64,000 bases of DNA from Oceanotoga teriensis (GCF_003148465.1 NZ_QGGI01000003.1:91940-155939), one strand, 5' to 3'; numbered from the stretch's first letter, positions 9,860 through 61,158 are shown. Notes: generated by a model from the sequence alone, not told the origin. Numbers and translations: made by a program.

Positions 9860-10030
9860 CCTCCTTTTCTCAGCTATTAGGCAGATTACTCTCACCAAAG
9901 CTAAAGAAAAGGATATCTCTACTTTGGTGACAGCGGACGCGATGTCGAACCGCAGCCATTTAAGGGCATTTCGTCACAGGGCAACGTCCCATCCCTGAGC
10001 ACTAAAACGCATGACATCTACTCTGCCACA
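9860..10030 (-). ncRNA. THF (tetrahydrofolate) riboswitch; aptamer about 9926-10030 plus an RBS-sequestering expression platform
   Basis: GC-rich island on the minus strand that matches the E. siraeum THF aptamer almost block for block (AGUAGAUG...GCGUUUUAGUG...GGGAUGGG...ACGAA...GCGG...CAUCGCGUCCGCU); downstream UCCUUUUCU can pair with GAGAAAAGGAGG at the folT RBS. Confidence 0.8.
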
Positions 10031-22628: not shown

Positions 22629-22688
22629 TTGATTAAACCAAAAAATCTTAACTTGACAAAATTAAAATAAAATTATAAAATCTATAAT

Positions 22689-22750
22689 GCACAATGAAGT
22701 GTTAAAAGCGATGAAGCTATGCGAATAATAATTCGCATAGCTTTTTTTTA
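22689..22750 (+). promoter_or_regulatory. ANTAR-type dual hairpin (P1 and P2) overlapping an intrinsic terminator, eutG leader
   Basis: P1 GCAC-AAUGAA-GUGU; P2 AGC-GAUGAA-GCU, whose 3' arm is the 5' arm of the terminator GCUAUGCGAAUAAUAAUUCGCAUAGC followed by U8. Confidence 0.65.
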
Positions 22751-22765
22751 TTTATGAGGAGGGAC

Positions 22766-23926
22766 ATGATGAATTATTTCGGTTTAAGAACAGAAATTTA
22801 TTCTGGAGAAAATAGTTTAAATAAATTAAATGAAATCAATTTAAAAAAAATATTTATAGTTACAGATCCTTTTATGGTAAAGTCTGGAATGATTGATAAA
22901 ATAACTGAAAGTTTAAAAAAAGATATTGAATATAAAATATTTTCACAAATAGTTCCTGACCCACCATTAGAAGTTATAATGAAAGGTGTAAATGAGCTTA
23001 ATGAATTTGAATCTGAAGGAATAATTGCACTCGGTGGAGGCTCTGCTATAGATGCTGCAAAAGCAATAAGTTGTTTTTTTAATAGAATAAATGAAAAAAA
23101 GAGTAATATAAAAAATAAAACACTTTATTTTATAGCAATACCTACTACTTCTGGAACTGGTTCTGAAGTTACAAGTTTTTCAGTTATAACTGATAAAGAA
23201 AAAAATATAAAATATCCACTCATATCAGATGAATTATTGCCTAATATGGCTATTTTAGATCCGGAATTAGTTAAATCTGTACCCGATTTTATAACAGCTG
23301 ATACTGGAATGGATGTTTTAACACATGCTATAGAAGCTTATGTTTCTACTGAAGCTAATGATTTTACAGATGCTCTTTCGGAAAAAGCAATAAAAATAGT
23401 ATTTGAATATTTAAAAAGAGCATATAAAAATGGAAATGATACTCAAGCAAGAATAAAAATGCATAATGCTTCATGTATTGCAGGTATTGCTTTTAACAAT
23501 GTTTCATTGGGATTGAATCATGGAATGGCACATATTCTTGGAGGGAAATTTCATATTCCACATGGTAGAGCAAATGCTATATTATTACCTTATGTTATAG
23601 AATATAATGCTGAATTAGGAAATTATTTGGATAAAAAAACATCAACAACTGCAAAAAGATATGCCAATATAGCAAAAATACTTGGATTATCTTGTTCAAA
23701 TACTAAAATAGGCGTAAAAAATTTAATTTTTGAGATAAATAAATTAAAAAAAGAATTGAATATACCAAATTCAATAAAAGAAGTTGGTATAAAAGAAAAT
23801 GATTTTGATCAAGCTTTAGACTTTTTATCACAAAAAGCAATTGAAGACAGATGTACTGAAACTAATCCAAGAAAGCCAAAGGTAGAAGAAATAAAAACTT
23901 TATTTAAAAAAGTATATAATGGATAA
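22766..23926 (+). CDS. eutG: iron-containing alcohol dehydrogenase (ethanolamine utilisation)
   Basis: Fe-ADH motifs (GGGSAID, HGxAH); location in the eut locus. Confidence 0.8.
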   Translation: MMNYFGLRTEIYSGENSLNKLNEINLKKIFIVTDPFMVKSGMIDKITESLKKDIEYKIFSQIVPDPPLEVIMKGVNELNEFESEGIIALGGGSAIDAAKAISCFFNRINEKKSNIKNKTLYFIAIPTTSGTGSEVTSFSVITDKEKNIKYPLISDELLPNMAILDPELVKSVPDFITADTGMDVLTHAIEAYVSTEANDFTDALSEKAIKIVFEYLKRAYKNGNDTQARIKMHNASCIAGIAFNNVSLGLNHGMAHILGGKFHIPHGRANAILLPYVIEYNAELGNYLDKKTSTTAKRYANIAKILGLSCSNTKIGVKNLIFEINKLKKELNIPNSIKEVGIKENDFDQALDFLSQKAIEDRCTETNPRKPKVEEIKTLFKKVYNG

Positions 23927-23988
23927 TAATATTAAAAATAAAGAATAATTTTTTTAAAAATTTAATAATCTGTAAACTTAATTTTAAG

Positions 23989-24018
23989 TTGACAAATTAC
24001 ATGATAATAATGTAAAAT
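23989..24018 (+). promoter_or_regulatory. sigma70-like promoter (TTGACA, 18-nt spacer, TGTAAAAT)
   Basis: consensus -35 and an extended -10 upstream of the eutS leader. Confidence 0.5.
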
Positions 24019-24033
24019 AAAAAGAGAAAAAAT

Positions 24034-24122
24034 GCACAATGGAGTGTGTTTATTAAAAATAAGCAAAGAAGCTTCTAAAAGAATACATTATTTCATATTC
24101 TTTAGAAGCTATTATTTTTTTA
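24034..24122 (+). promoter_or_regulatory. ANTAR-type dual hairpin overlapping a terminator, eutS leader
   Basis: P1 GCAC-AAUGGA-GUGU; P2 AGC-AAAGAA-GCU; P2 3' arm lies inside the terminator AGCUUCUAAAAGAAUA...UAUUCUUUAGAAGCU followed by a U-run. Confidence 0.7.
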
Positions 24123-24153
24123 TAAAATAAATTTAAGAATGGTGATAAATAAA

Positions 24154-24498
24154 ATGGAAGAAAAACAAAGAACTATACAAGAATATGTTCCTGGAAAACA
24201 AGTAACATTAGCTCATTTAATAGCAAATCCAGATACAGACTTATATAAAAAATTAGGATTAAATGTACAAACTAAAGAAGCTATAGGTATACTCACTATA
24301 ACTCCAAGTGAGGCGGCAATAATCGCAGCAGATGTTGCTACAAAAGCTGCGGGAGTTAAAATAGGTTTTGTTGATAGATTTAGCGGATCATTAGTTATAA
24401 CTGGAGATGTTGGAAGTGTAGAAGCTGCATTAAAAGATGTTGTTAAGATGCTTATAAATACATTGAAATTTTCTGGTACAAATATAACGAGGACTTGA
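24154..24498 (+). CDS. eutS: BMC shell protein EutS/PduU type (permuted BMC-H)
   Basis: [27 protein letters not shown]-terminus typical of EutS; RBS before the ATG at 24154. Confidence 0.8.
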
Positions 24499-24935
24499 AT
24501 ATGAAAAAAATAATGCTTATTGGTAAGACTGGAAGTGGTAAAACAACTTTTTGTCAAGCTTATAAAAATCAAGAATTAATATATAAAAAAACACAAGCCA
24601 TAGACTTTATGGATGAATTAATAGATACTCCGGGAGAATATATAGAAAATAGAGTCTATTACAAAGCCTTAATAGTGACTTCAAATGAGTGTGATATCAT
24701 TTGTTTCCTTAATGATCCTACTTCTGATGAAAGTTTTTTACCACCAGGATTTGCAAGTATGTTTAATAAAGAAACTATTGGACTTATAACAAAAATAGAA
24801 AAATCTTCAAATGAAAACATAAAGAAAGCTGAAGAAAATTTAAAATTATCTGGAGTAGAAAAAATTTTTAAGATAGATAACTTTTCGAAGAAAGGATTTG
24901 AAGAGTTGGAGAATTATATAAATAGTTTGTCATAA
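24495..24935 (+). CDS. eutP: EutP/PduV-family GTPase
   Basis: P-loop GKTGSGKTT; 146 aa. Confidence 0.8.
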
Positions 24936-24946
24936 TGAGGTGAATT

Positions 24947-25360
24947 ATGAAAGAAAAAATAGTAATAGCTGATGATGAGCCTATTACAAGGCAGGATTTA
25001 CGAGAAATCCTTGAAATAGCCGGATACAATGTTGTAGCGGATGCTTCTGATGGGTTTGATGCTGTAGAACTATGTAGAAAATTTAAACCTGATCTCGTTT
25101 TAATGGACATAAAAATGCCTTTGTTGGATGGCTTAAATGCTTCAAAAATAATAACTTCAGAAGGATTAGCAGGTGGGGTTATATTATTAACAGCCTATAG
25201 TGATGAAGATTTTATAGCAAAAGCCAAAAAATCAGGTGTTATAGGTTACTTAGTTAAGCCTATTGATGAAAGATCTTTAATACCATCCATAGAAATATCT
25301 TTAAGTAAATGTGTTGAAATAAATAGAATGAAAGAAGATATAAAAAAAGCCAATAAAAAA
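24947..25360 (+). pseudogene. eutV: eutV 5' fragment (receiver domain of the ANTAR response regulator), truncated by an IS insertion
   Basis: CheY-like receiver (DDEP...D54-like...K); the reading frame ends in a TGA supplied by the first bases of the IS. Confidence 0.8.
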
Positions 25361-25402
25361 TGAACTGACCCATGTCAAGTAGACACAAAAATTAATAAAA
25401 AA

Positions 25403-26221
25403 TTATATACAATTGGATGCTTGGTTTCTGAACTCAACAGGAGCCATGCATCCAAGTTTTTTCTGGAATCTACGATTGTTATAAAAATCAATGTATTTGT
25501 GAATAGCTTTCTCTAATTCTTCAAGAGAATTAAACTTCTTACCATAAAACATCTCAGATTTAAGAGTACCAAAAAATCCTTCCATAGGGCCATTATCTAT
25601 ACATTTACCAACACGAGACATACTTTGTGTCATTTCAGATTCTTCTAGTTTAGTTTTAAATACTCTACCAGTATATTGAAATCCCCTGTCACTATGAAAT
25701 ATTGGTTTAGCTTCTGGATATTTTTCTATTGCTTTATCGAACATTTTGAATACAAGTCTGTTGTCGTTTCTATATGATGTTTCATATACCACTATATCGT
25801 TACCATGTAGATCCATTACAGGACTTAAATAAAGTTTTCTTGTATCTGTTGGTATTGAAAACTCAGTTACATCTGTCAACCATTTTTCATTTGGGTTTTC
25901 TGTACTGAAATCTCTGGATAGTATGTTCTCTTTTGTGTATTCAGGTTTTGTCCTCTTACGATTAATTTTCTTTCTTCTTATCCTGGAAGATACTCCTAAA
26001 AGTTTCATCAGTCTGTGTATATAACCTTCAGAATATTCTTTTTGGTTTAATCTGTTTATGTACATGGTCATTCTTCTGTATCCAAGTATCCCGTCATATG
26101 TAGCATGGTATTCTTGAATTAGATTACATATAGTTTCATCTTGAATTTCTTTTTGTGGTTTTTCCCTTTTTTGATTTTTGTAGTATGAACTTCTGGATAT
26201 TTTCAACACATCACACAACAT
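25403..26221 (-). CDS. IS3-family transposase OrfB (rve integrase core; made as OrfAB by a -1 frameshift)
   Basis: LCDVLKISRSSYYK start typical of IS3/IS150 OrfB; DDE core (HSDRG...). Confidence 0.8.
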   Translation of the reverse strand: MLCDVLKISRSSYYKNQKREKPQKEIQDETICNLIQEYHATYDGILGYRRMTMYINRLNQKEYSEGYIHRLMKLLGVSSRIRRKKINRKRTKPEYTKENILSRDFSTENPNEKWLTDVTEFSIPTDTRKLYLSPVMDLHGNDIVVYETSYRNDNRLVFKMFDKAIEKYPEAKPIFHSDRGFQYTGRVFKTKLEESEMTQSMSRVGKCIDNGPMEGFFGTLKSEMFYGKKFNSLEELEKAIHKYIDFYNNRRFQKKLGCMAPVEFRNQASNCI

Positions 26222-26280
26222 TTTAACTGTGTATCCTTTGGTTTTGTAGTAATCTACCGTTTTGTATTCACCATATTGTT

Positions 26281-26985
26281 TTACTCTCGAGATTCTCTTT
26301 CTTTTTGGAATTCCTCTTTTTTTTTATGTACTTCTAACTCAAAAGCTAATCTTTTGTTTTTAGCTCTTTCTCTTTCCAATTCAAGTTTTAATTTCTGATT
26401 TTCTGTCAGTTCATCTTCTTTTATGTCAGTTTTAGATTTAGGACCACGTTTCCCATATTTGAGTGATTCAGGACCTTTGTTTAAATACATCTTTGTCCAT
26501 TTATATACTGAAGAATATTTTATTGCATGTTTATCTGCAGCTTCTTTGTAGTTCATATCGTTGTTTATTACCCATTTAACTATTTCTAATCTTTCTTTGT
26601 ATGTAGTTTTTCTTGACTCCATGGTATAGACATCTCCTTTCGGATCATAATCTTTCAATTCTATACCATTATAATACTTATTTATCCAATTTTTTATTAT
26701 TGAAACATGAATATCATATTTTACTGATAAATCCATGGCTGAAAATTTTCCATCTATGTATTTTTTAACTACAAATAGCTTGAATTCCTTACTGTATGAT
26801 TTATTTCTTTTTGTTATTTCAAATACTTTTTCTCCATGTTGTATATATCTGTGATACCAATCACTTAAAGATGATTTATCACATCCCACTGATTTTGATA
26901 TACTTTTGAAACTTCCTTTTCCTGCTATGTAATCTTTACATGCTTTTACCTTTGTTTCTTTACTATATTTCCCTTTTCTCGACAT
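26281..26985 (-). CDS. IS3-family transposase OrfA (HTH)
   Basis: DNA-binding HTH and leucine-zipper region; ends inside the A AAA AAA AAG frameshift window. Confidence 0.8.
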   Translation of the reverse strand: MSRKGKYSKETKVKACKDYIAGKGSFKSISKSVGCDKSSLSDWYHRYIQHGEKVFEITKRNKSYSKEFKLFVVKKYIDGKFSAMDLSVKYDIHVSIIKNWINKYYNGIELKDYDPKGDVYTMESRKTTYKERLEIVKWVINNDMNYKEAADKHAIKYSSVYKWTKMYLNKGPESLKYGKRGPKSKTDIKEDELTENQKLKLELERERAKNKRLAFELEVHKKKEEFQKERESRE

Positions 26986-27055
26986 AATAAATATACCTCC
27001 AAAGCAGCTTTGTAATTTTTATTAATTACGTGTCTACTTTGGAGGTATCATATCA

Positions 27056-27220
27056 AAACTTGAAGATAGAAAAATTATAGAAAAAGCAAAGGGTATACTA
27101 ATGGAAAAAGAAAATTTATCTGAAAAAACTGCTTTTGAAAGAATAAGAACATTAAGTATGAATAAAAGATGTTCTATGAAAGATATAGCAGAGGCTATTG
27201 TGATAAGTTATGAAGAGTAA
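27056..27220 (+). pseudogene. eutV: eutV 3' fragment (ANTAR domain)
   Basis: KLEDRKIIEKAKGILMEKENLSEKTAFERIRTLSMNKRCSMKDIAEAIV is a canonical ANTAR motif; it is in frame with the 5' fragment once the IS and one AAA copy are removed. Confidence 0.8.
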
Positions 27221-28616
27221 AATATGTGAATTATGTAAAAAATATACAGACCTTGATGAAGAAGATATAAAAATATTAGAAAACTATTCTTTATGTATGG
27301 ATGCAGTAGCTGATATTGAAAATGCTGATGTATTTATAGATAGTTTGACAAGAGATAATGATGAAGCTATAGTGATAGCCCAAGCTAAGCCTAAAAATAC
27401 AAAATCAATGTATAACAGATCTGTTATTGGTGAAATAGCTTATAGAAAAAATGAACCAGCAGTTTTAAGGACTTTACAACTTGGAATATCGACCAAAGAT
27501 ATAAAAGCACTAACTCAAGAAGAAGTTAGTGTAAGGCAAACAGTAGCCCCAATAAAAAATAAAGATAAAGTAATAGGAGTTTTAATCATAGAAAAAGATA
27601 TAACAGAGAAAATAAATAAAGATAAATATATGGAAGTATTGGAACAGAGTTATGAAAAGCTTACAGATACTTTGTTGTATATGACTGAAAATGATGGTAC
27701 TATAACAAATCATATTGATGAAATAATAATGATGTTTGATGAAGAGGGAATACTAAAATTTGCCAATTCAGTAGCTGAAGAATTATATTTAAAACTTGGG
27801 TACAGAGATAACCTTATAGGTATGAAATATGATAATGTTTCTCTTGATGATTCGAAGTTTAAAGATATAATAAATGAAGGTTGTATACAAGAAAGTGAGA
27901 TAAATTATGGGAAATATTTTTTTAATATAAAAAAAATAATATCCAGTAGAGAATCTTTCAAATTAATTCTAATGATTAAGGATATAACGGATATGAAAGA
28001 AAAAGAAAAAGAACTCATACTAAAATCTGTAGCAATAAAAGAAATACATCATAGAGTAAAAAATAATCTTCAAACTATTGCCAGTTTATTGAGACTTCAA
28101 TCAAGGAGATGTGTTAGCGAAGAAGCTAAAAATGCATTAAATGAAAGTATGAATAGAATTTTAAGCATATCTGCTACTCATGAAATACTTTCTCAAGAAG
28201 GTCTTGATGAACTTTATATATTTGAGGTTATAAAGAACATAAAAACAAGTATTATGCGGGCTTACAGAAATCCGAATGCAGAACTTATAATAAATTTAAT
28301 GGGTGATGATTTCAAAATAAGCTCTGATAAATCAACATCTATAGCTCTCATAATAAATGAATTACTTCAAAATTGTATAAAATATGCTTTTATAGGGAAA
28401 GAAAAAGGACAAATAGATATAAAAATTGAAAGAGGTGATTTATATTCTACAATATCAATTATAGATAATGGTATTGGTTTTGATATAAATCATATGAAAA
28501 AAAATAGTCTTGGTTTTACAATAGTAGAGAGTCTTGTCAAAGACAAACTTTATGGTAATATAAAAATAAATTCTGATAAAAATGGAACGAAAGTTTTGTT
28601 TGATTTTAAAAATTAA
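27210..28616 (+). CDS. eutW: sensor histidine kinase EutW
   Basis: HHRVKNNLQ H-box and an HATPase_c C-terminus; overlaps the eutV 3' end as in Firmicutes eut loci. Confidence 0.8.
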   Translation: MKSKICELCKKYTDLDEEDIKILENYSLCMDAVADIENADVFIDSLTRDNDEAIVIAQAKPKNTKSMYNRSVIGEIAYRKNEPAVLRTLQLGISTKDIKALTQEEVSVRQTVAPIKNKDKVIGVLIIEKDITEKINKDKYMEVLEQSYEKLTDTLLYMTENDGTITNHIDEIIMMFDEEGILKFANSVAEELYLKLGYRDNLIGMKYDNVSLDDSKFKDIINEGCIQESEINYGKYFFNIKKIISSRESFKLILMIKDITDMKEKEKELILKSVAIKEIHHRVKNNLQTIASLLRLQSRRCVSEEAKNALNESMNRILSISATHEILSQEGLDELYIFEVIKNIKTSIMRAYRNPNAELIINLMGDDFKISSDKSTSIALIINELLQNCIKYAFIGKEKGQIDIKIERGDLYSTISIIDNGIGFDINHMKKNSLGFTIVESLVKDKLYGNIKINSDKNGTKVLFDFKN

Positions 28617-28625
28617 ATAATAAAA

Positions 28626-28695
28626 TACAATGATGTATTAAAAAAAGCAATGAGGCTTAAAACTATTTTTTATAGTTTTAAGCCTTTTTATTTTT
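28626..28695 (+). promoter_or_regulatory. ANTAR-type dual hairpin overlapping a terminator, eutA leader
   Basis: P1 UAC-AAUGAU-GUA; P2 AGC-AAUGAG-GCU; terminator AGGCUUAAAACUAU-UUUUU-AUAGUUUUAAGCCU followed by a U-run. Confidence 0.7.
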
Positions 28696-28714
28696 CAAAA
28701 GAAGGTGTCGTTGA

Positions 28715-30145
28715 ATGAAAGAAAAGTTTTTAAGTGCAGGTATTGATATAGGAACTTCTACAACGCAACTTGTTTTTAGTGAAATAACTATAGAAAATAT
28801 GGCTTCTGATTTTACAGTTCCAAGAATAAAAATAGTAGATAAAGAAATAGTTTATAGAAGTAATATATACTTTACACCTTTGATAAATCAAAATGAAATT
28901 GATGGTGAAAAGGTAAGAGAAATAGTTGAAATTGAATATAAAAAAGCTGGATATGAATCAGAAAATATAAAAACTGGTGCAGTTATTATAACTGGAGAAA
29001 CAGCAAGGAAAAAAAATGCAAATGAAGTTTTACAAAATCTTAGTGGATTAGCAGGAGATTTTGTAGTTGCGACAGCTGGACCAGATTTAGAATCAATAAT
29101 TGCAGCTAAAGGTGCTGGAGCAGATATTTTATCAGAGAAAAAAAGAAATACAGTTGTAAATCTCGATATAGGTGGAGGAACTACAAATTTAGCTGCTTTT
29201 CATGATGGAATTCTTTTAGATACTGGATGTCTTGATATAGGTGGAAGATTGATTAAATATGATAATTATAAAAAAATTACATATATTTCACCTAAGTTAC
29301 AAAAAATAATAGAAAATGAAAATATAAATTTAAAAGTTGGACAAGAGATAGATTTAATAGAATTAAAAAAAATAATAAATATTATGGTTGATTTACTTTA
29401 TCAATCTATAAACAAAAAAGAAATGAGTTCGTACTATGACTTTATTTTAACTAATAAAGGAATAAAACAAGATATAAATGTTGATTGTATAACCTTTTCT
29501 GGAGGTGTTGCTGATTATGTATACAATCAAAACTATGAAGATCTTTTTAAATATGGAGATATTGGAATTATATTGGGGAAAGCTATAAAAGAATCTAATT
29601 TATTTAAAAATATAGATATTGGACAAGCAGTTGAAACGATAAGAGCAACTGTTGTAGGAGCTGGAACACATACAACTGATATATCTGGAAGTACAATAAC
29701 ATATTCTGAGCAACTTTTACCATTAAAAAATGTGCCTATATTAAAACTTGAAAAACATGAAGAAATTTTAGATAATAAAGAATTTATATCTGTTATAAAT
29801 AAGAAAATTTCTTGGTTTGAAAATGAAAATTCTCTTCAACAAATAGCTATAGCGATAAATGGAAAAGAATATACAAAATTTGTAGATATACAAAATCTTG
29901 CACAAAATCTAATAGATGGAAGTAAAAAATTATTAGATTTGGGCTATCCATTAATAGTAATAGTAGAAAATGATATAGCAAAAGTATTAGGTCAAACTCT
30001 AAATAGCAAATTAAATTATAAAAAAGAATTAATTTGTATAGATGGAATAAAGGTTGAAAACGGAGATTATATAGATATTGGTAAACCTTTGGCCGAAGGT
30101 AAAGTATTGCCTGTTGTTATAAAAACTTTAGTTTTTAATTCATAA
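28715..30145 (+). CDS. eutA: ethanolamine ammonia-lyase reactivase EutA
   Basis: 476 aa; ASKHA-fold start GIDIGTSTT. Confidence 0.85.
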
Positions 30146-30169
30146 AAAATGAATGAAGGAGTGACTATA

Positions 30170-31534: not shown

Positions 31535-31546
31535 AGAGGTGGGAAA

Positions 31547-32455
31547 ATGCAACTTGAAAGCAGTGAATTAAAAAAATTAGTTGAACAAGTTTTAAATGAA
31601 ATGACTTCAGGTAACACAGAAAAAGTAAAAGAAGAAGTTATTAATAAAGTACAACAAACTAATAATATAACATCTGATTCTAATATAGAAGAAGGTTGTA
31701 TTGAAGATATAACAGAAACAGATTTAAAAACTCAGTTATTAGTTGAAAATCCAGCTGATAGAGAAGGATATTTAAAAATGAAACAAAATACTCCAGCAAG
31801 AATAGGAGTTGGAAGAGCAGGAGTTAGATATAAGACATTATCTTCTTTAAGATTTAGAGCAGATCATGCCGCAGCTCAAGATGCTGTTTTTTCTTATGTA
31901 TCTGATGAGTTTTTAAATGAAATGGGACTTTTCACAGTTCAAAGTAAGTGTAAAACAAAAGATGAATATATAACTAGACCTGATTTAGGAAGGAAAATAA
32001 ATGAAGAAGGTATTGATCTGATAAAAGAAAAATGTAAAATAAATCCAACAGTACAGATATTAATTGCAGATGGATTAAGTTCTTCAGCTATAGAAGCAAA
32101 TTTAAAAGATATACTTCCATCAATTGTACAGGGGCTAAAAGGTTTTAATATAGATATTGGAACTACATTTTTTGTAAAACTTGGTAGAGTTGGAGTTATG
32201 GATCATGTTTCAGAAATAACGAATGCAGAAGTTACTTGTTTATTAGTTGGAGAAAGGCCAGGGCTTGTTACTGCTGAAAGTATGAGTGCTTATATTGCAT
32301 ACAAAGCTAAAGTTAACATGCCAGAAGCAAGAAGAACAGTTATATCTAACATACATAAAGGTGGTACTTCTGCTGTAGAAGCAGGTGCTCATATTGCTGA
32401 GCTTATAAAAACTATGTTAGAGAAAAAAGCAAGTGGAATTGAATTAAAAGCTTAG
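31547..32455 (+). CDS. eutC: ethanolamine ammonia-lyase small subunit
   Basis: conserved EutC core plus an amphipathic N-terminal extension ([13 protein letters not shown]) typical of encapsulation peptides. Confidence 0.85.
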
Positions 32456-32466
32456 GAGGTAAACTT

Positions 32467-33120
32467 ATGAAAAATGATGCTTTATATGCAAAAGTATTGA
32501 GTACAAAAATAATATCAAATGTAAGTCCTGATCTTGCAAATGAGTTAAAATTAAAATCTCATCATAAAAGTTTAGGTTTGATAAGTGCTGATATAGATGA
32601 TGTTACATACACTGCTTTAGATGAAGCAACAAAAGCAGCAGATGTTGAGGTTGTTTATGCTAAATCTATGTATGGTGGTTCTGCGAATGCAAATACTAAA
32701 CTTGCTGGTGAAGTTATAGGTATTATAGCAGGACCAAATCCAGCAGAAGTAAGAAGTGGATTGAATGCTGCGATAGATTTTATTGAAAGTGGAGCACATT
32801 TTATATCAGCAAATGAAGATGATTCAATTACATATTATGCTCATTGCGTATCGAGAAGTGGATCATTTTTATCAGAGACAGCTGGAATACAAGAAGGAGA
32901 ACCTATAGCTTATTTAATAGCACCACCTCTTGAAGCAATGTATGCATTAGATGCTGCATTAAAAGCGGCAGATGTTAAAATGGCTACATTATATGGACCT
33001 CCTTCAGAAACAAATTTTGGTGGAGCATTATTAACAGGAAGTCAATCGGCATGTAAGGCAGCATGTGATGCATTTGCACAAGCAGTTCAACAAGTAGCAG
33101 AAAATCCTACAAATTATTAA
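32467..33120 (+). CDS. eutL: BMC-T shell protein EutL (tandem permuted BMC domains)
   Basis: 217 aa; MKNDALYAKVLSTKIISNVSPDLA start matches EutL. Confidence 0.85.
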   Translation: MKNDALYAKVLSTKIISNVSPDLANELKLKSHHKSLGLISADIDDVTYTALDEATKAADVEVVYAKSMYGGSANANTKLAGEVIGIIAGPNPAEVRSGLNAAIDFIESGAHFISANEDDSITYYAHCVSRSGSFLSETAGIQEGEPIAYLIAPPLEAMYALDAALKAADVKMATLYGPPSETNFGGALLTGSQSACKAACDAFAQAVQQVAENPTNY

Positions 33121-33132
33121 GGCTAAATAATA

Positions 33133-33642
33133 ATGAATGCTTTGGGTTTAATAGAAGTATATGGATATTTGGGTGCTATTGAAGCTGCCGATTCAGCACT
33201 TAAAGCTGCAAATGTTAAATTGATTGACTGTGAGAAGGTAAGAGGTGGTTTAGTATGTGTGAAATTAACAGGTGATGTAGGAGCTATAAAAGCTGCTGTA
33301 GATGTTGCAGAAGAAAAAACTAAAAATTTGAATGTATATGTATCAAGCCATGTTATCGCTAAACCAGATGATTCATTAAAAAAAATATTAGAAATAAATA
33401 AAAAAATAAATACTGAATCAAAAAAAGAAATAATAAAAGAAGAAAAAAGTGAAGTTTCAAAAATAGAAACAGATAATAAAATTATATTTACAAAAGAAGA
33501 ACTTGAATCAAAAACTGTGGAAGAACTTAGAAGAATGGTAAGAAATATAAAAAGTTCAATGTCAAATAAACAAATAAAGTATGCAAGAAAAGACAAATTA
33601 ATAGAAGAATTATCCCGTTATTATAAAAGGGGGAATAAATGA
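33133..33642 (+). CDS. BMC-H shell protein with a roughly 75-aa lysine-rich C-terminal extension (EutK-like position)
   Basis: N-terminal BMC domain (LGLIEVYGYLGAIEAADSALKAANV) followed by a K/E-rich tail. Confidence 0.7.
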   Translation: MNALGLIEVYGYLGAIEAADSALKAANVKLIDCEKVRGGLVCVKLTGDVGAIKAAVDVAEEKTKNLNVYVSSHVIAKPDDSLKKILEINKKINTESKKEIIKEEKSEVSKIETDNKIIFTKEELESKTVEELRRMVRNIKSSMSNKQIKYARKDKLIEELSRYYKRGNK

Positions 33643-35108
33643 TGTTGCAGGATAAAGACTTATTATCAATACAAGAAGTAAGAGATTTAGTAAAAAAAGC
33701 AAAAGAAGCTCAAAAAATTCTTGCTAATATGAATCAAGAACAGATAAATAAAATAGTAAAAGCAATTTCAGAAGCTGGTTATACAAATAGAGAAAAATTG
33801 GCTAAAATGGCTCATGAAGAAACTGGATTTGGAAAATATCAGGATAAAATAGTAAAAAATACATTTGCCAGTAAAGTGGTTTATGAAAATATAAAAGATT
33901 TAAAAACTGTAGGTATTTTAAATGAAGATAAAGAAAATAAAATATTAGAAATTGCTGTACCAGTAGGAGTTGTAGCTGGATTAATTCCATCAACAAATCC
34001 AACTTCAACTGCAATTTATAAAGCAATGATAGCTTTAAAAGCAGGAAATTCAATAGTTTTTTCACCACATCCAAATGCTAAAAAATGTATATTAGAAACT
34101 GTAAAAGTTATAAAAGAAGCTGCTTTAAAAGCAGGAATGCCTGAAGATGCTATTTCTTGTATAAGTATTCCAAGTATGCAAGGAACTACAGAATTGATGA
34201 AACATGATGATGTTTCTCTTATACTTGCAACAGGTGGTTCGGCTATGGTAAAAGCTGCCTATAGTTCGGGTACTCCTGCAATAGGTGTTGGACCGGGAAA
34301 TGGACCAGCTTTTATTGAAAAATCTGCAAATATAAAATTAGCTGTAAAAAGAATAATAGATAGTAAAACATTTGATAATGGTACTATTTGTGCTTCTGAA
34401 CAATCCATTGTTGTAGAAAAAGAAACTGAAGAAAAAGTTGTAAAAGAATTAAAAGCTCAAGGTGCATATTTTATGACAAAAGAAGAAGCAGACAAATTGT
34501 CTAAATTTATCTTGAGATCAAATGGAACTATGAATCCTCAAATAGTTGGTAAAAGTCCACAAGTTATAGCTGATCTTGCTGGAATAAAGATTCCTGAAAA
34601 TACAAAGGTATTGATAGCCTACGAAGAAAATGTTGGTCCTAAATATCCATATTCAAGAGAAAAATTAGCTCCAATACTTGCTTTCTATGTTGAAAAAGAT
34701 TGGAAATCGGCATGTGACAGATGTATTCAAGTTTTATACAATGAAGGTGCTGGCCATACAATGATAATTCATAGTGAAAATGAAAAAATAATAAAAGAAT
34801 TTGCATTGAAAAAACCAGTATCAAGAATTTTAATAAATACTCCAGGTTCATTGGGTGGAATAGGAGGAACAACAAATTTAGTTCCTGCATTAACACTTGG
34901 ATGTGGTGCTGTTGGAGGAAGTGCTACATCAGATAATATAGGACCTATGAACTTAATAAATATAAGAAGAGCAGTATATGGAATACGTGAACTTGAAGAT
35001 TTAAAAGAAAATAAAGATTCAAATGAAAACAATAATACAATTTCTGAAGATTATGTAAATTTAATAGTTGAAAAAATAGTACAAAAATTAAAAGAAAAAA
35101 TAAATTAA
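33639..35108 (+). CDS. eutE: CoA-acylating acetaldehyde dehydrogenase
   Basis: ALDH fold with catalytic Cys (GTICASEQS); N-terminal amphipathic helix typical of an encapsulation peptide. Confidence 0.85.
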   Translation: MMLQDKDLLSIQEVRDLVKKAKEAQKILANMNQEQINKIVKAISEAGYTNREKLAKMAHEETGFGKYQDKIVKNTFASKVVYENIKDLKTVGILNEDKENKILEIAVPVGVVAGLIPSTNPTSTAIYKAMIALKAGNSIVFSPHPNAKKCILETVKVIKEAALKAGMPEDAISCISIPSMQGTTELMKHDDVSLILATGGSAMVKAAYSSGTPAIGVGPGNGPAFIEKSANIKLAVKRIIDSKTFDNGTICASEQSIVVEKETEEKVVKELKAQGAYFMTKEEADKLSKFILRSNGTMNPQIVGKSPQVIADLAGIKIPENTKVLIAYEENVGPKYPYSREKLAPILAFYVEKDWKSACDRCIQVLYNEGAGHTMIIHSENEKIIKEFALKKPVSRILINTPGSLGGIGGTTNLVPALTLGCGAVGGSATSDNIGPMNLINIRRAVYGIRELEDLKENKDSNENNNTISEDYVNLIVEKIVQKLKEKIN

Positions 35109-35140
35109 ATTAATTATTCATCTCAAAGGAGGTTTTACAA

Positions 35141-35425
35141 ATGCCAAGTTCAAATGCATTAGGTATGGTAGAAACAAGAGGATTGGTAGGTTCAATAGAG
35201 GCAGCAGATGCAATGGTAAAAGCTGCTAATGTAACATTAGTAGGTAAAGAACATGTTGGTGGTGGATTAGTAACTGTAATGGTAAGAGGTGATGTAGGAG
35301 CCGTTAAAGCAGCAACTGATGCAGGAGCAGCAGCAGCAGAAAGAGTTGGGGAATTAGTATCTGTACATGTAATTCCAAGGCCACATTCTGAAGTAGACGC
35401 AATATTACCTAAAGTACAAGGTTAA
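35141..35425 (+). CDS. eutM: BMC-H shell protein EutM/PduA type
   Basis: 94 aa canonical BMC domain ([26 protein letters not shown]). Confidence 0.85.
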
Positions 35426-35485
35426 TAATTATAAGGCTGTCTCAAACAAAAAATTGAGACAGCCATTTTATAAGGATGTGAAATA

Positions 35486-36223
35486 ATGAGTTTATTAACC
35501 GAAAATGAAGTGAAAAAAATTATAAAAGAAAACAAAGATAAAATAATAATAGATGATAAAACTATAATAACTCCTTCAGCTAAAGAGTTAATAGATGGTA
35601 AGAAAATAAAACTCATTAGAGAAAAGGAATTGAATAAAGTATTTAAAGATGAAAAAGAAAATAAAAAAAATACACCAAAGTTTAAATATATATATGGTGG
35701 TTATTATGATGAAAAACCTGAACATCTTACTCAATTATTTGGTAATAATCTTGTCCCAAAAAATCATAAAAGAATAATTTTTAGAGGTAAAATAGATAGT
35801 TTAGAATCTAAAATATTAGAAGTTCAAGTATATTGTAAAAATAATAAAAAAGAAAAACTATTAAAAGATTTAGAAGATGTTCTTATTTTTGTAAGAAAAA
35901 TTTTAAGAGCAGAAGTATTAGATGAAGAATTAAAAGATTTTAACCTTATAGGTTTAAATGAAGAAGAAATACATGAAATGTCACATTATCCTAAAAAATA
36001 TTTTGGTATAGGGCATATTTTTCCTGAATATACCATGGGAGATTATGTAATATATTTAAACTCTATTAGAAGTCTTGTAAGAGAAACTGAAATAAGTGCG
36101 TACAATGCTTTTTCTAATTCAGAAAATGAAATAAGTAGACTTGATATAATAAAATATTTAAATAGATTAAGTAGTTGCTTATATGTAATGATGTTTAAAT
36201 ATTTATCTGGAAAATATAATTAA
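35486..36223 (+). CDS. ATP:cob(I)alamin adenosyltransferase (PduO-type; EutT-equivalent) with an N-terminal 45-aa module
   Basis: LFGNNLVPKNHKRIIFRGKIDSLESKILE resembles the PduO/MMAB N-terminal motif; position as in Firmicutes eut loci. Confidence 0.5.
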   Translation: MSLLTENEVKKIIKENKDKIIIDDKTIITPSAKELIDGKKIKLIREKELNKVFKDEKENKKNTPKFKYIYGGYYDEKPEHLTQLFGNNLVPKNHKRIIFRGKIDSLESKILEVQVYCKNNKKEKLLKDLEDVLIFVRKILRAEVLDEELKDFNLIGLNEEEIHEMSHYPKKYFGIGHIFPEYTMGDYVIYLNSIRSLVRETEISAYNAFSNSENEISRLDIIKYLNRLSSCLYVMMFKYLSGKYN

Positions 36224-36243
36224 ATTTAAGAGGTGTACTTTAA

Positions 36244-36855
36244 ATGGAAAAAATTATAGAAAAAATAACTGATAAGGTTATAAATGAATTATTTATAAAA
36301 GTAGAAGCTTCTGGAAGACATGTACATCTATCTCAGGAACATTTAGAGTTATTATTTGGAAAAAATTATAAATTAACAAAAACTAAAGATCTTTCACAGC
36401 CTGGTCAATATGCTTGTGAAGAAAGAGTGACCTTAATAGGTCCAAAAGGAAAAATAGAAAATGTTGTTATTTTAGGACCTGTTAGAAAAAATACTCAAGT
36501 AGAAGTTTCTAAAACAGATCTTAGACCATTGGGATTAAATGCTCCAATTAGAGAATCTGGAGATATAAAAGGTTCTGGTTCAATAAAGATAAAAACAGAA
36601 AAAACTGAATTAGAAATAAAAGAAGGACTAATAATAGCTAAAAGACATATTCATATGACTCCAGAAGATGCTAAAAAACATGGAGTTAAAGATAAAGAAA
36701 TAGTAAATGTAAAAATTTTTTCAAATAGACCTTTAATATTTGAGGATGTAGTTATAAGAGTTAGTGATAATTATAAAACTTTTATGCATATAGATTATGA
36801 TGAAGCAAATGCATGTGGATTCAAGAAAGACACTTTAGCAATTATAAAAAAGTAG
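36244..36855 (+). CDS. pduL: phosphate acyltransferase PduL type (EutD functional equivalent)
   Basis: two PduL repeats with GRHVHLS and RHIHM motifs; N-terminal amphipathic helix. Confidence 0.8.
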   Translation: MEKIIEKITDKVINELFIKVEASGRHVHLSQEHLELLFGKNYKLTKTKDLSQPGQYACEERVTLIGPKGKIENVVILGPVRKNTQVEVSKTDLRPLGLNAPIRESGDIKGSGSIKIKTEKTELEIKEGLIIAKRHIHMTPEDAKKHGVKDKEIVNVKIFSNRPLIFEDVVIRVSDNYKTFMHIDYDEANACGFKKDTLAIIKK

Positions 36856-36862
36856 CTATAAG

Positions 36863-37522
36863 GTGGGGAAAAACTTGAATACTAAAGAATTAGTTGAATT
36901 AATAACTGTTGAGGTAATTAAAAGATTAAAATTAAAAAATAAAAAGAAATTATTGGTTTTAAATGAAGGATTTAAAAGTTTAGATGATTTATTAACAGAT
37001 TATGAAATAATTCATTATTCTGAAGATCTTGAATTAAAAGATTTTGATGAAATTTATTTAGGAAAAATGGATTTAAAGATGATTTCACATTTGGCCAATG
37101 GAATAATAATAAATGAAATAGAAGATTTAATTTTAAAATCTCTTCTGAAGGATAAAAAAATATTTTTATTTTCTGAAGATATAGAATTAAAAAAATTCAA
37201 TAATACTAAAAACACAAATTTATATAAAATTTTTAATCAAAATATTGAAAATATAAAAAATATCGGAATAATAATATTAGATGAAAAAATAGATATAAAA
37301 GAAAATATAAACATTAATACAAAATATAAAAATGAAGTTAAAGAAGAAGATTCAATAATTTTAAAAAATAAATTAATAACAGAAAATGAGTTAAAAAAAT
37401 TAGGATTAAAAAATGGATCGAAAATAAATATTGGAAATAAATCCATAATAACTCCTCTTGCAAAAGATTATATAAGAATACATAAAATAAGACTGACTAA
37501 AAGTCAGGAGGAAAAAATATGA
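36863..37522 (+). CDS. hypothetical eut-locus protein
   Basis: K/N/I-rich; its C-terminal 45 aa are homologous to the N-terminus of the adjacent adenosyltransferase. Confidence 0.4.
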   Translation: MGKNLNTKELVELITVEVIKRLKLKNKKKLLVLNEGFKSLDDLLTDYEIIHYSEDLELKDFDEIYLGKMDLKMISHLANGIIINEIEDLILKSLLKDKKIFLFSEDIELKKFNNTKNTNLYKIFNQNIENIKNIGIIILDEKIDIKENININTKYKNEVKEEDSIILKNKLITENELKKLGLKNGSKINIGNKSIITPLAKDYIRIHKIRLTKSQEEKI

Positions 37523-37791
37523 TTATTGCAAAGGTAATCGGAAATATATGGGCTACGAGAAAAGATGAAAAATTAAATGGATTTAAATTTTTAGTTGTTA
37601 AACAATGTAACACTCAAACAGATAATCAATTTGTTGCAGCAGATATGATTGGTGCTGGAATAGGGGATACTGTACTAATAACAAAAGGAAGTTCGGCAAG
37701 GAATTCTCTTGAAAATACAAATATACCAATTGATGCAGTAATTGTTGGGATAATAGATAGCCTTGAAGTGGATGAAGGATTATTAAAATAA
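37519..37791 (+). CDS. eutN: BMC vertex protein EutN/PduN/CcmL family
   Basis: MIIAKVIGNIWATRKDEKL; 90 aa. Confidence 0.8.
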   Translation: MIIAKVIGNIWATRKDEKLNGFKFLVVKQCNTQTDNQFVAADMIGAGIGDTVLITKGSSARNSLENTNIPIDAVIVGIIDSLEVDEGLLK

Positions 37792-37804
37792 AGGTGATTA
37801 TATT

Positions 37805-38329
37805 ATGTTTAAATCAATTGGAATAATAGAAACGAGATCAATAGCTTTTGGTTATGAAATAGCGGACAAATTATTAAAAGATTATGATGTTGAACTATTA
37901 CAATGTAAAACAAAATGTCCAGGGAAATTTATTATAATAATATGTTCAGATACTCAAAATGTAAACGATGCAATTATTAGTATAAAAAGACATAAAAATT
38001 TAATAGGGAATTTGTTGATTTCAGATGCTCATCAAAAATTAATAGATGGCTTAAAAAATAAATTTGATACATATAAAAATGGTGCAATAGGTATAGTAGA
38101 ATCTTTAGATATAGTTACAGGTATTAATAGTCTTAATAAAATTTTAAAAAATAATAATGTAAATTTACTAAAATTAAATCCATCGATTATGATAGGTGGA
38201 AAATGCTATTTCATAATAAATGGAGATCTTAGTTCTGTAGAACAGGCAATATTTGGGGGCATAGATAAAAAAAGATTACAAACAAGTGTAATAGCAAATC
38301 CTGATACAGAATTAATAAGTAAATTATAA
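37805..38329 (+). CDS. PduT-like BMC-T shell protein (candidate Fe-S cluster site)
   Basis: two tandem BMC domains; CPGKF and GIGGKCY motifs aligning with the PduT 4Fe-4S cysteine. Confidence 0.7.
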   Translation: MFKSIGIIETRSIAFGYEIADKLLKDYDVELLQCKTKCPGKFIIIICSDTQNVNDAIISIKRHKNLIGNLLISDAHQKLIDGLKNKFDTYKNGAIGIVESLDIVTGINSLNKILKNNNVNLLKLNPSIMIGGKCYFIINGDLSSVEQAIFGGIDKKRLQTSVIANPDTELISKL

Positions 38330-38346
38330 AATGGGGAGGAAAACAA

Positions 38347-39438
38347 ATGGAAATAATAAATACTATTATAATAGATATAATGGTTGTATTTATGGCTTTA
38401 GGAGCTATTGATAAATGTTTGGGAAACAAATTTGGTTTGGGTGAAAAGTTTGAAGAAGGTTTCATGGCTATGGGAGCTTTGACAGTTGCTATGGTTGGAG
38501 TTATTTCATTGGCACCGGTATTAAAAAATATATTAGAACCAGTTATAGTACCAGTTTATAAATTTTTAGGAGCAGATCCTTCAATGTTTGCAACAACATT
38601 GCTTGCTTGTGATATGGGTGGGTATCCATTAGCTATGGAACTTGCTTTAACAGAAGAAGCAGGAAAGTTTGCTGGAATAATTCTTGGATCTATGATGGGA
38701 CCAACTATTGTTTTTACAATACCTGTTGCATTGGGAATAATAAAAAAAGAAGATCATAAATATCTTGCTACTGGAGTTTTAGCAGGTATAATAACTATAC
38801 CAATTGGAACTTTAGTTGGTGGACTCGTTGCTGGATACAGTATAATAATGATTTTAAGAAATTTAGTACCTATAATAATATTTGCTGTTTTAATAGCAAT
38901 TGGATTAAAATTAATCCCTGAAAAAATGATAAAAGGTTTCAATGTTTTTGGAAAAATAGTAGTTATAATAATAACTCTTGGTCTTGCTGCTATAATTATA
39001 GAAACATTAACAGGTCTTGTTATAATACCTGGAATGAAACCAATATCTGAAGGTATAAAAGTAGTGGGAGATATAGCAATAGTACTTGCTGGAGCATTTC
39101 CTATGGTATATGTTATAACTAAAGTATTTAAAAAACCTTTAATGAAATTAGGAAAAACTTTGGGAATGAATGAAATAGCTGCTGCTGGTATGGTTGCAAC
39201 GCTTGCTAATAACATTCCTATGTTCGGTATGATGAAAGATATGAATGCAAGAGGAAAAGTAATAAATGTAGCTTTTGCGGTTAGTGCATCTTTTGTGTTT
39301 GGAGACCATTTAGGTTTTACAGCCGGTGTAGAGAAGGGTATGATATTTCCTATGATTGTTGGAAAACTTGTTGGTGGAATTACTGCAGTTGTTTTAGCTT
39401 GTTTTATAGCTTCAAGAAGTTCTCTTGTAAAAGAATAA
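38347..39438 (+). CDS. eutH: ethanolamine permease EutH
   Basis: 363 aa polytopic membrane protein in the conserved eut position. Confidence 0.8.
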   Translation: MEIINTIIIDIMVVFMALGAIDKCLGNKFGLGEKFEEGFMAMGALTVAMVGVISLAPVLKNILEPVIVPVYKFLGADPSMFATTLLACDMGGYPLAMELALTEEAGKFAGIILGSMMGPTIVFTIPVALGIIKKEDHKYLATGVLAGIITIPIGTLVGGLVAGYSIIMILRNLVPIIIFAVLIAIGLKLIPEKMIKGFNVFGKIVVIIITLGLAAIIIETLTGLVIIPGMKPISEGIKVVGDIAIVLAGAFPMVYVITKVFKKPLMKLGKTLGMNEIAAAGMVATLANNIPMFGMMKDMNARGKVINVAFAVSASFVFGDHLGFTAGVEKGMIFPMIVGKLVGGITAVVLACFIASRSSLVKE

Positions 39439-39450
39439 GGAGTTGTTAAA

Positions 39451-39900
39451 ATGGAAATAAATAAAGAAATTATAGAAAATATAGTTAGAGAAATTTTAAC
39501 AGAAGGATTAAAAAATAATTCAGAAATAAAGAAAAATATAGAACCTTTGTCAGGAATTCTTTCTGTTGATATGAATACAGTTAAACCAGAAAAATTTGAT
39601 ACTGGAAAAGAAGGAGATCAAGTTTATTTAAAAGACATATTAACATTAGAAGAAAGTCCAAGACTTGGAGCAGGTTTAATGGAAATGAAAGAGACAACAT
39701 TCGATTGGACTTTAGAATATGATGAGGTTGATTATATAATAGAAGGTACACTTGAAATCAATATAAACGGCAAAAAAGTTAAGGCCAGTGCCGGAAATGT
39801 AATATTTATACCTAAAGGATCATCAATACAATTTTGTGTGCCAGATTACGCCAAATTTCTATATGTTACCTATCCAGCAGATTGGGCATCTCAAAAGTAA
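39451..39900 (+). CDS. eutQ: EutQ (cupin-fold ethanolamine utilisation protein)
   Basis: 149 aa; cupin C-terminus; last gene of the island. Confidence 0.7.
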   Translation: MEINKEIIENIVREILTEGLKNNSEIKKNIEPLSGILSVDMNTVKPEKFDTGKEGDQVYLKDILTLEESPRLGAGLMEMKETTFDWTLEYDEVDYIIEGTLEININGKKVKASAGNVIFIPKGSSIQFCVPDYAKFLYVTYPADWASQK

Positions 39901-39918
39901 TATTAATTGACCTAAAAA

Positions 39919-39949
39919 AATAGGAGACATTTTATAAATGTCTCCTATT
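39919..39949. terminator. bidirectional terminator hairpin bounding the eut island
   Basis: AAUAGGAGACAUUUUAUAAAUGUCUCCUAUU flanked by an A-run 5' and, on the other strand, a U-run. Confidence 0.65.
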
Positions 39950-39957
39950 CGAACATA

Positions 39958-43167: not shown

Positions 43168-43433
43168 AATTTATAGTACTCGCGCTCATAGATTTTTATA
43201 GAAAAATCATATCCCCTTTAAAACCTCCAACCTGTAGGTTTACACCAACATGTTCCACTTACACATATACTGCTGTGGAAAGGTTTGGTGTTTTTAAAGG
43301 GTTATATCTCGGTCTCAGACGTATTTTAAGATGTCATCCTTTTAATCCTGGTGGTGAAGATCCAGTGCCAGTAAAATTTTCGTTCTTTTTAAGCAAAGTA
43401 AATGATAACAATAAGACCAGAAGGGGTGCTTGA
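43164..43433 (+). CDS. yidD: membrane protein insertion efficiency factor YidD
   Basis: [23 protein letters not shown] signature. Confidence 0.85.
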
Positions 43434-43434
43434 A

Positions 43435-56471: not shown

Positions 56472-56546
56472 ATGGCAGCCCCACGGGGAATCGAACCCCG
56501 ACTCTCGGACTGAGAATCCGATGGACTGGCCGTTATCCTATGGGGC
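56472..56546 (-). tRNA. tRNA-Glu (anticodon CUC), CCA encoded
   Basis: manual cloverleaf: acceptor GGCCCCA/UGGGGCU, anticodon stem UCGGA/UCCGA, loop UUCUCAG, T-arm CGGGG-UUCGAUU-CCCCG, discriminator G, CCA. Confidence 0.8.
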
Positions 56547-56622
56547 CATAACAAGAGATATTATACCATTCTTTTTTAGTTTTGTAAATACTTTTTTTGA
56601 AAACTTTATGCAAAAATAATAT

Positions 56623-61114: not shown

Positions 61115-61158
61115 CTCAGCCACCTTTTTTTATATATTTTATTATGAGGGGGAATAAA

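Follow-up and report, generated by a model that had tools for sequence, protein, structure and literature searches.

An ethanolamine-utilisation microcompartment locus of probable Clostridium-like origin in Oceanotoga teriensis, with an IS3-family element in its regulator gene eutV

How did a complete ethanolamine-utilisation (eut) microcompartment locus come to reside in Oceanotoga teriensis, a member of the Petrotogaceae within the Thermotogota, and is the regulatory system that it carries still intact? This question is raised by a 64,000-nucleotide stretch of DNA (GCF_003148465.1, NZ_QGGI01000003.1:91940-155939; referred to as the window), in which positions 22629-39957 comprise a complete EUT2-type locus of approximately 17 kb. 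The analysis described here indicates that an ancestor of Oceanotoga very probably gained this locus as one block from a Clostridium-like Firmicute, with its own ANTAR regulation aboard, and that eutV, the gene of its response regulator, is split in this assembly by an insertion sequence (IS). The main new detail is the latter, a mobile element that breaks a regulator gene.

Open reading frame (ORF) listing and scans with NCBIfam and Pfam models delineated a block of plus-strand genes at 22754-39900, in the order eutG-S-P-V-W-A-B-C-L-(BMC-H)-E-M-T-pduL-hyp-N-pduT-H-Q (BMC, bacterial microcompartment). The island is bordered by the stop codons of the hypothetical gene hyp437 at 22628 and of a 5'-nucleotidase gene at 39958, in agreement with the limits (22629-39950) proposed in a first-pass annotation made from the sequence alone, and every eut gene named there was found at its proposed coordinates. 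The EUT2 signature is present, including ethanolamine ammonia-lyase EutBC with its reactivase EutA, the shell proteins EutM, EutL, EutN, and EutS, an EUT2-type aldehyde dehydrogenase, and a PduL-type phosphotransacylase; the latter scored 327 bits with NF040837 (BMC_EutD_Gpos, cutoff 315), which bears out the proposal that PduL stands in place of Pta. The core enzymes and shell proteins exceeded the curated cutoffs (for example EutH with 611 bits; EutB, EutA, EutL, and EutE as listed below). The products of eutT, eut_hyp, eutN, and pduT scored below the NCBIfam equivalog cutoffs, and their order and positions are those of Clostridium-type loci (for pduT in one such locus only, contig L004). 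EutN matches EutN/CcmL models below these cutoffs, and Pfam EutN_CcmL was detected on its 100% identical orthologue in Oceanotoga sp. DSM 15011/T3B (hereafter T3B). Similarly, the EutW domains GAF_PdtaS, HisKA_2/HWE_HK, and HATPase_c were assigned on the 100% identical T3B orthologue; this cognate kinase is encoded directly downstream of eutV. In the extended BMC-H protein, the Pfam BMC domain covers residues 3-78 of 169. Besides eutV, the island encodes:

22754-23926, plus strand: eutG-like iron-containing alcohol dehydrogenase (matches to the Fe-alcohol dehydrogenase family; 61-64% identity to the positional orthologue in Clostridium-type loci)
24139-24498, plus strand: eutS, BMC shell protein (NF012012 EutS, 125 bits, cutoff 123)
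24495-24935, plus strand: eutP, EutP/PduV GTPase-like protein (TIGR02528, 176.8 bits)
27210-28616, plus strand: eutW, sensor histidine kinase of 468 amino acids (aa; histidine-kinase matches)
28715-32455, plus strand: eutA, reactivase, and eutB and eutC, ethanolamine ammonia-lyase subunits (NF007992, 726 bits; NF011649, 708 bits; NF003971, 326 bits; all above cutoff)
32467-33642, plus strand: eutL (BMC-T; NF011934 EutL, 379 bits, cutoff 198) and a BMC-H gene with a C-terminal extension (the 'M/K' gene)
33639-35425, plus strand: eutE-type acetylating aldehyde dehydrogenase (TIGR02518, 831 bits, cutoff 620) and eutM, major shell protein (NF012018, 133.1 bits, cutoff 133)
35486-39900, plus strand: eutT, pduL-type eutD, eut_hyp (TIGR02536), eutN (BMC-P), pduT-like tandem BMC gene, eutH permease, and eutQ

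The affiliation of the island differs from that of its surroundings. The best 119 non-Oceanotoga matches of EutB share 81-88% identity with it; those that are named are all from Clostridium except for two from Bacilli, and no other Thermotogota occur among these 119. The nearest relatives outside Oceanotoga are Clostridium sequences with 82-87% identity. In a neighbour-joining tree of EutB rooted on the Bacilli, Oceanotoga is nested among Clostridium. For SecD, whose gene lies 2 kb left of the island, the best matches are Petrotogaceae at 60-76% identity: Geotoga-type with 76%, Tepiditoga with 73%, and Petrotoga, Marinitoga, and Defluviitoga with 65-69%. Other Thermotogota come next, at approximately 50%. 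The comparison of best-match taxonomy that the first-pass annotation had proposed as a check thus revealed a difference between island and flank. Moreover, each of the 19 genes of the island has a collinear counterpart in Clostridium-type loci, i.e., two Clostridium chromosomal loci (L005 and L006) and a contig of a Logan assembly (L004, the closest one outside Oceanotoga), at 30-92% amino acid identity (median approximately 65%), and the expectation that the order from eutG to eutQ is that of Clostridium was confirmed. The 15 flanking genes share 28-85% identity with their orthologues in the sister genus (median approximately 62%). The similarity of the island to Clostridium is consequently as high as that of the flanks to the sister genus, and exceeds the published average amino acid identity of approximately 59% between Oceanotoga and Geotoga.

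The insertion site could be located by means of a contig (L007) that was assigned as Geotoga-type on basis of its SecD and PFK proteins, which cluster at no less than 90% identity with proteins of Geotoga petraea. This contig carries 15 flanking orthologues collinear with both flanks of the window, in the order PPase-PFK-AI-2E-DUF4416-HTH-SecF-SecD-YajC-hyp428 and, beyond the island site, 5'-nucleotidase-ARMT1-RnpA-YidD-YidC-Jag-cupin. The empty site that had been predicted for a relative is present here as a spacer of 48 bp between the orthologues of hyp437 and the 5'-nucleotidase gene, which contains a single terminator hairpin and no eut genes or eut remnants, and from which it follows that the island was inserted in the spacer between two convergent genes. 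The 5'-nucleotidase orthologue of this contig (7091-8029) was called as a protein of only 312 aa with the C-terminal domain, and 369 of 499 residues are matched by tblastn, so that a truncation or frameshift may be present in this gene. Tepiditoga spiralis has no eut genes beside yajC-secD, and is uninformative for the insertion site because synteny is kept on the SecD side only. A contig scan with SecDF yielded only a metagenome-assembled genome (MAG) of a distant Thermotogota, with no synteny beyond yajC.

These observations bear on the alternative of vertical inheritance, according to which eut genes were ancestral in the Petrotogaceae or the Thermotogota and were lost everywhere but in Oceanotoga. 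Such a history would agree with the host-like codon usage and GC content of the island (see below) and with its borders, in which mobility genes were not found, yet it fits poorly with a clean 48-bp site in the sister-genus contig, with the position of EutB within Clostridium, and with an island that resembles Clostridium as closely as the flanks resemble the sister genus. Tepiditoga adds to this, within the limits of its one-sided synteny, and the main text of Sutter et al. (2021, Nat Commun 12:3809) has the locus as the sole BMC of the phylum. Vertical inheritance is therefore considered very improbable, and horizontal acquisition of the whole metabolosome locus, as was proposed in the first-pass annotation on basis of gene content and context, is upheld by the EutB matches and tree, the collinear loci, and the empty site.

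A second alternative is that Clostridium eut DNA was mis-joined into a Thermotogota contig by contamination or chimeric assembly. The host itself is not in doubt: the window has exact protein matches to the O. teriensis PWJ959xx series, in line with the Thermotogota-type chromosome that had been suspected from the flanking genes. A host among the Fusobacteria, considered initially in view of the 26% GC and the diderm context, was rejected on these matches. Three of the flank features concerned were found. These are a SecDF fusion of 763 aa (18414-20705, minus strand) that occurs in all Oceanotoga assemblies, with separate SecD (approximately 470 aa) and SecF (approximately 298 aa) proteins at the same position in the Geotoga-type contig and Tepiditoga; a bifunctional AroK/AroB fusion (6166-7650, plus strand; NF010556, 478 bits, below the cutoff of 560); and a YidC protein of 464 aa (43402-44796, plus strand) with a long N-terminal region, of which the insertase domain begins only at approximately residue 260. 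Suspicion of a chimera is raised by the Clostridium best matches of the island and by the T3B genome paper, in which the PWJ assembly GCA_003148465 is reported as flagged for contamination and suppressed. Against this, in the chromosome of T3B (CP107547), which is closed and was sequenced independently, the island lies between the same neighbours, with the same junctions and at 99.3-99.5% nucleotide identity, and in two further assemblies (series MDO79768xx and MDN53411xx) the island adjoins SecD and the 5'-nucleotidase gene. Near-identical copies of the proteins are found in T3B, in another O. teriensis assembly, and in an Oceanotoga MAG; the island proteins are only approximately 65% identical to any known Clostridium, and the codon usage of the island is nearer to the host than to the Clostridium orthologues. 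The contamination reading is thereby effectively refuted, and its probability is negligible.

In the same T3B genome paper, T3B is suspected to be the source of the suppressed 'DSM 24906' assembly. Alignment of positions 18472-41527 of the window with T3B revealed base differences of approximately 0.5-0.7% over 21 kb in addition to the IS polymorphism described below, a level of divergence that points to a separate but closely related strain and not to one and the same culture.

Composition and codon usage were compared between island and flanks, as had been proposed in the first-pass annotation, and here the expected difference did not appear. The window is uniformly AT-rich, with approximately 22-34% GC in 2-kb windows, and the island (approximately 24-32%) is not set apart. 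The GC content at third codon positions (GC3) is 0.111 in the island and 0.123 in the flanks (p=0.11), and relative synonymous codon usage (RSCU) is correlated with r=0.99 (gene-label permutation p=0.04). The Clostridium eut orthologues have a GC3 of 0.154, and the root-mean-square RSCU distance of the island is 0.157 to the host flanks and 0.258 to these orthologues. Since the Clostridium eut genes are nearly as AT-rich as the host, a foreign signal is not expected and codon usage is uninformative; the usage found is consistent with amelioration, and provides weak evidence either way.

Several points nevertheless weigh against an origin by transfer from a Clostridium-like Firmicute, or limit what can be said of it. 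The island has no compositional or codon-usage sign of foreignness. The closest known loci have a median amino acid identity of approximately 65%, i.e., approximately 35% protein divergence, and a metagenome scan with EutW for a closer donor yielded nothing above 52% identity, so that the donor is unsampled and the transfer not demonstrably recent. No integrase, tRNA, or direct repeats were found at the island borders, which do not give the insertion mechanism. As the available Oceanotoga assemblies are near-identical, acquisition after the split of Oceanotoga and Geotoga rests on the one Geotoga-type contig and the literature. Finally, we infer from sequence the function, the formation of microcompartments, and the influence of the IS on regulation. 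With regard to the donor, the EutB homologue nearest to that of Oceanotoga by distance (P0049) originates from a eukaryote transcriptome assembly in EukProt (a TRINITY contig); presumably, bacterial sequence has contaminated that dataset, and the unsampled donor lineage might be its source.

The second part of the question concerns regulation by EutVW and ANTAR leaders, which had been proposed for the locus in the first-pass annotation. Whereas eutW and the leaders are present, eutV is split by an element of the IS3 family. The features concerned are:

24947-25363, plus strand: 5' fragment of eutV, receiver (REC) domain only, 138 aa (Pfam Response_reg alone; the TGA stop is contributed by the IS end)
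25361-27055, minus strand: IS3-family insertion sequence, 1,695 bp (NF033516 IS3 transposase, 273.6 bits, cutoff 160)
26281-26985, minus strand: orfA of the IS, rich in helix-turn-helix motifs
25403-26221, minus strand: orfB of the IS, DDE (rve) transposase
27056-27220, plus strand: 3' fragment of eutV, ANTAR domain, 54 aa, without usable start (Pfam ANTAR positions 6-54 of 54)

The element separates the receiver from the ANTAR domain, four residues into the latter. The 5' fragment matches residues 1-138 of intact T3B EutV (191 aa, REC and ANTAR domains) at 100% identity, and the 3' fragment overlaps the start of eutW by 11 nucleotides. Excision of positions 25361-27055 together with one AAA copy restores a REC-ANTAR ORF of 191 aa that is 100% identical to T3B EutV, and the blastn alignment with T3B is continuous and broken only by the 1,695 bp of the IS. 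In place of the intact response regulator that is found in T3B, the window therefore has an ORF restricted to REC and an isolated ANTAR fragment. The sole ORF with a standard start codon (ATG, GTG, or TTG) in the ANTAR frame past the IS comprises 39 aa from an internal Met, and lacks the first helix.

The boundaries of the IS were set from the T3B alignment and from other copies of the element: seven further copies, at unrelated sites in metagenome contigs, start and end at exactly the same bases. The termini are of the TG...CA type (TGATATGATACC...GGGTCAGTTCA) within imperfect terminal inverted repeats of approximately 40 bp, in which 24 of 40 positions match, and the element is flanked by a 3-bp AAA target duplication, the exact length of which is ambiguous because the site lies within an A-run. 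An A9 slippery run is located at nucleotides 731-739 of the IS, within the 3' end of orfA; together with the orfA/orfB arrangement it fits the -1 frameshifting of the IS3 family, which is predicted for this element, and a fused transposase form of 525 aa exists in the same protein cluster. An independent Logan assembly contains an identical IS-eutV junction. The SecD and EutW accessions lie 10 apart in the PWJ series and only 7 apart in three other Oceanotoga series, which agrees with an IS specific to this assembly. As to the wider occurrence of the element, its transposase (25403-26221, minus strand) belongs to a cluster at 90% identity or more that includes a protein of Petrotoga sp. 9PW.55.5.1, and some of the metagenome copies (among L010-L016) are flanked by mutually inverted repeats (aaaccctcatat...atatgagggttt), an arrangement suggestive of palindromic insertion targets. 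IS3-family transposases are listed in the UFV_LIMV02 genome paper, only on the genomic islands of that genome.

The consequences of this insertion depend on the RNA elements on which EutV would act. In Enterococcus faecalis, the ANTAR antitermination target consists of paired hexaloop hairpins overlapping a terminator. Three leaders with this organisation were detected in the window, two of them preceded by promoter-like sequences:

22653-22681, plus strand: sigma-70-like promoter upstream of eutG, TTGACA-17-TAAAAT (11 of 12 consensus positions; among the three best plus-strand matches)
22689-22750, plus strand: eutG leader, ANTAR dual hairpin overlapping an intrinsic terminator (P1 GCAC-AATGAA-GTGT; P2 AGC-GATGAA-GCT at 22707-22718; terminator 22713-22744 followed by a T8 run; fold z = -4.25)
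23989-24018, plus strand: sigma-70-like promoter upstream of eutS, TTGACA-18-TAAAAT (11 of 12 positions)
24034-24121, plus strand: eutS leader, ANTAR dual hairpin and overlapping terminator (P1 GCAC-AATGGA-GTGT; P2 AGC-AAAGAA-GCT at 24062-24073; fold z = -3.5)
28624-28696, plus strand: eutA leader, ANTAR dual hairpin (P1 AATAC-AATGAT-GTATT; P2 AGC-AATGAG-GCT at 28646-28657; terminator 28652-28686; fold z = -5.3)

The sigma-70 promoter and ANTAR leader proposed for the left boundary were thus recovered before eutG. The eutG and eutS promoters are the two strongest intergenic plus-strand matches, in AT-rich DNA in which the overall count of promoter-like sequences is not above chance. The leaders share the consensus P1 (G)CAC-AATGnA-GTG(T), or AATAC-AATGAT-GTATT, and P2 AGC-RAnGAn-GCT; five of the six hexaloops read AnnGnn and the remaining one GATGAA. 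Scanning and folding revealed that the 3' half of P2 doubles as the start of a terminator stem of 13-15 bp, followed by a T-run. Four occurrences of the P2 motif were counted in the 64 kb, where 0.63 would be expected. Three are the leaders; the fourth, at 28116, was rejected as a chance match, as it lies within the eutW coding sequence without P1 hairpin or terminator. The Clostridium locus L006 has paired hairpins and terminators at all three corresponding positions, and contig L004 has them before eutG and eutA. By analogy with the E. faecalis system, the three leaders are putative ANTAR antitermination targets with candidate EutV binding sites. Neither the window nor T3B (L003) nor any of the three Clostridium-type loci (L004-L006) has a cobalamin riboswitch that reaches the Rfam gathering threshold, from which it appears that a B12-sensing small RNA (sRNA) layer of the EutX/Rli55 type is absent.

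Taken together, the gene families would fit a pathway in which EutH imports ethanolamine and EutBC, with EutA as reactivase and EutT as the source of its adenosylcobalamin (AdoCbl), breaks it down to ammonia and acetaldehyde within a shell of EutS, EutL, EutM, the extended BMC-H protein, PduT, and EutN; EutE would convert acetaldehyde to acetyl-CoA, and PduL and EutG would recycle CoA and NAD+. The locus would have entered the short spacer between the convergent genes for a secreted hypothetical protein, beside yajC-secDF, and for the 5'-nucleotidase, and its regulation would have arrived with it: EutW would phosphorylate EutV, and the ANTAR domain of the latter would bind the pair of hexaloop hairpins in each leader (eutG, eutS, and eutA), thereby blocking the overlapping terminators. 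With eutV broken, all three terminators would stay closed. Since the split gene cannot give the antiterminator, the prediction for this assembly is a non-inducible locus, and in T3B, with eutV intact, the locus should be inducible.

It could be argued that the insertion is phenotypically silent or even activating, the locus still being expressed through read-through, an outward promoter of the IS, leaky terminators, another ANTAR regulator, or the truncated ANTAR peptide. EutW and all proteins encoded downstream are 99-100% identical to those of T3B, promoter-like sites occur within eutW ahead of the eutA leader, and the 39-aa ORF spans two-thirds of the ANTAR domain. However, three strong terminators (stems of 13-15 bp with T-runs) still precede eutG, eutS, and eutA, the element is antisense to the operon so that read-through must traverse 1.7 kb of foreign sequence, and the peptide lacks the first helix of the ANTAR domain and the entire receiver/linker region. 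In E. faecalis EutV, this region is reportedly needed for the phosphorylation-dependent dimerisation that enables two-hairpin binding. A silent or activating insertion is thus deemed unlikely. We lean towards regarding the insertion as a natural eutV knockout which, with the approximately 99.4% identical T3B and its intact eutV, makes up a near-isogenic pair. If this is true, the pair would allow testing whether a cross-phylum microcompartment locus is used and regulated in a moderately thermophilic member of the Thermotogota, or is decaying.

Two further hairpins lie within or at the edge of the island:

35435-35464, strand not assigned: strong 11-bp GC-rich hairpin (GGCTGTCTCAA...TTGAGACAGCC) within the 60-bp spacer between eutM and eutT
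39918-39950, minus strand: right-boundary hairpin, a canonical terminator of the convergent 5'-nucleotidase gene

The former may act as an internal attenuator or mRNA stabiliser that sets shell-protein stoichiometry. The latter had been described as bidirectional, which holds in part: for the minus-strand 5'-nucleotidase gene it has the form of a canonical intrinsic terminator, but on the plus strand there is no T-run directly after the hairpin. Elsewhere in the window, a tetrahydrofolate (THF) riboswitch (9929-10027, minus strand, 61 bits) lies directly upstream of an ORF of 176 aa (9323-9853, minus strand), and a small bacterial signal recognition particle RNA (61025-61124, plus strand, 72.9 bits) and one tRNA gene (56476-56547, minus strand) were detected.

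The central claim is already known. According to the main text of Sutter et al. (2021), the same O. teriensis locus, of subtype EUT2I, is the only BMC in the Thermotogae, which accords with the rarity presumed in the first-pass annotation, and was derived from a Firmicute by horizontal gene transfer, 'possibly recent', with the EUT2I locus of Clostridium scatologenes as the closest. The subtype label is taken from that paper, and the collinearity with Clostridium loci is added here. The median identity of approximately 65% and the host-like codon usage do not support recency. That main text mentions neither the insertion site nor the Geotoga empty site, nor the ANTAR leaders, nor that eutV is disrupted by an IS3 element; two Oceanotoga genome papers do not mention ethanolamine, a eut locus, or microcompartments, and a search of the searchable literature after 2021 for other BMCs in Thermotogota found nothing relevant. 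What is added here comprises the base-level insertion site with a sister-genus empty site, co-transferred ANTAR leaders that are conserved with Clostridium, the lack of a B12 riboswitch, and the IS3 knockout of eutV. The locus exemplifies a whole metabolic organelle, including enzymes, shell, transporter, two-component sensor, and cis-acting RNA switches, that crosses phyla as one module. The literature, as represented by that main text, already uses it as such; the additions tighten the case and give a testable regulatory prediction, and leave the overall picture unchanged.

Among known systems, the Clostridium EUT2-type loci (L005 and L006, including CP009933.1 with EutB WP_029159296) and the Logan contig L004 share with the window the order from eutG to eutQ, EutVW, the PduL-type EutD, ANTAR dual hairpins and terminators before eutG, eutS, and eutA (in L004 seen before eutG and eutA), and the lack of a cobalamin riboswitch. 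We take CP009933.1 to be C. scatologenes. These loci differ from the window in their protein sequences (30-92% amino acid identity), their flanking genes, and their intact eutV, and pduT is lacking in L005 and L006 and present in L004. The eut loci of E. faecalis and Listeria monocytogenes have the same EUT2 enzyme and shell set, and a sensor kinase with a REC-ANTAR antiterminator that acts on a pair of hexaloop hairpins, with A at position 1 and G at position 4, that overlap terminators; there, an AdoCbl-riboswitch sRNA (EutX/Rli55) sequesters EutV. Unlike these, the window, T3B, and the Clostridium-type loci have no cobalamin riboswitch at the Rfam gathering score; the sRNA is a feature of the Enterococcus/Listeria version rather than of the whole EutVW family. 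Finally, the EUT1 loci of Salmonella and Escherichia coli encode the same pathway and the shell families EutS, EutM, EutN, EutL, and EutK, in another gene order and with AraC-type regulation by EutR and a Pta-type EutD, whereas the window carries EutVW/ANTAR regulation and the PduL-type enzyme of the NF040837 family.

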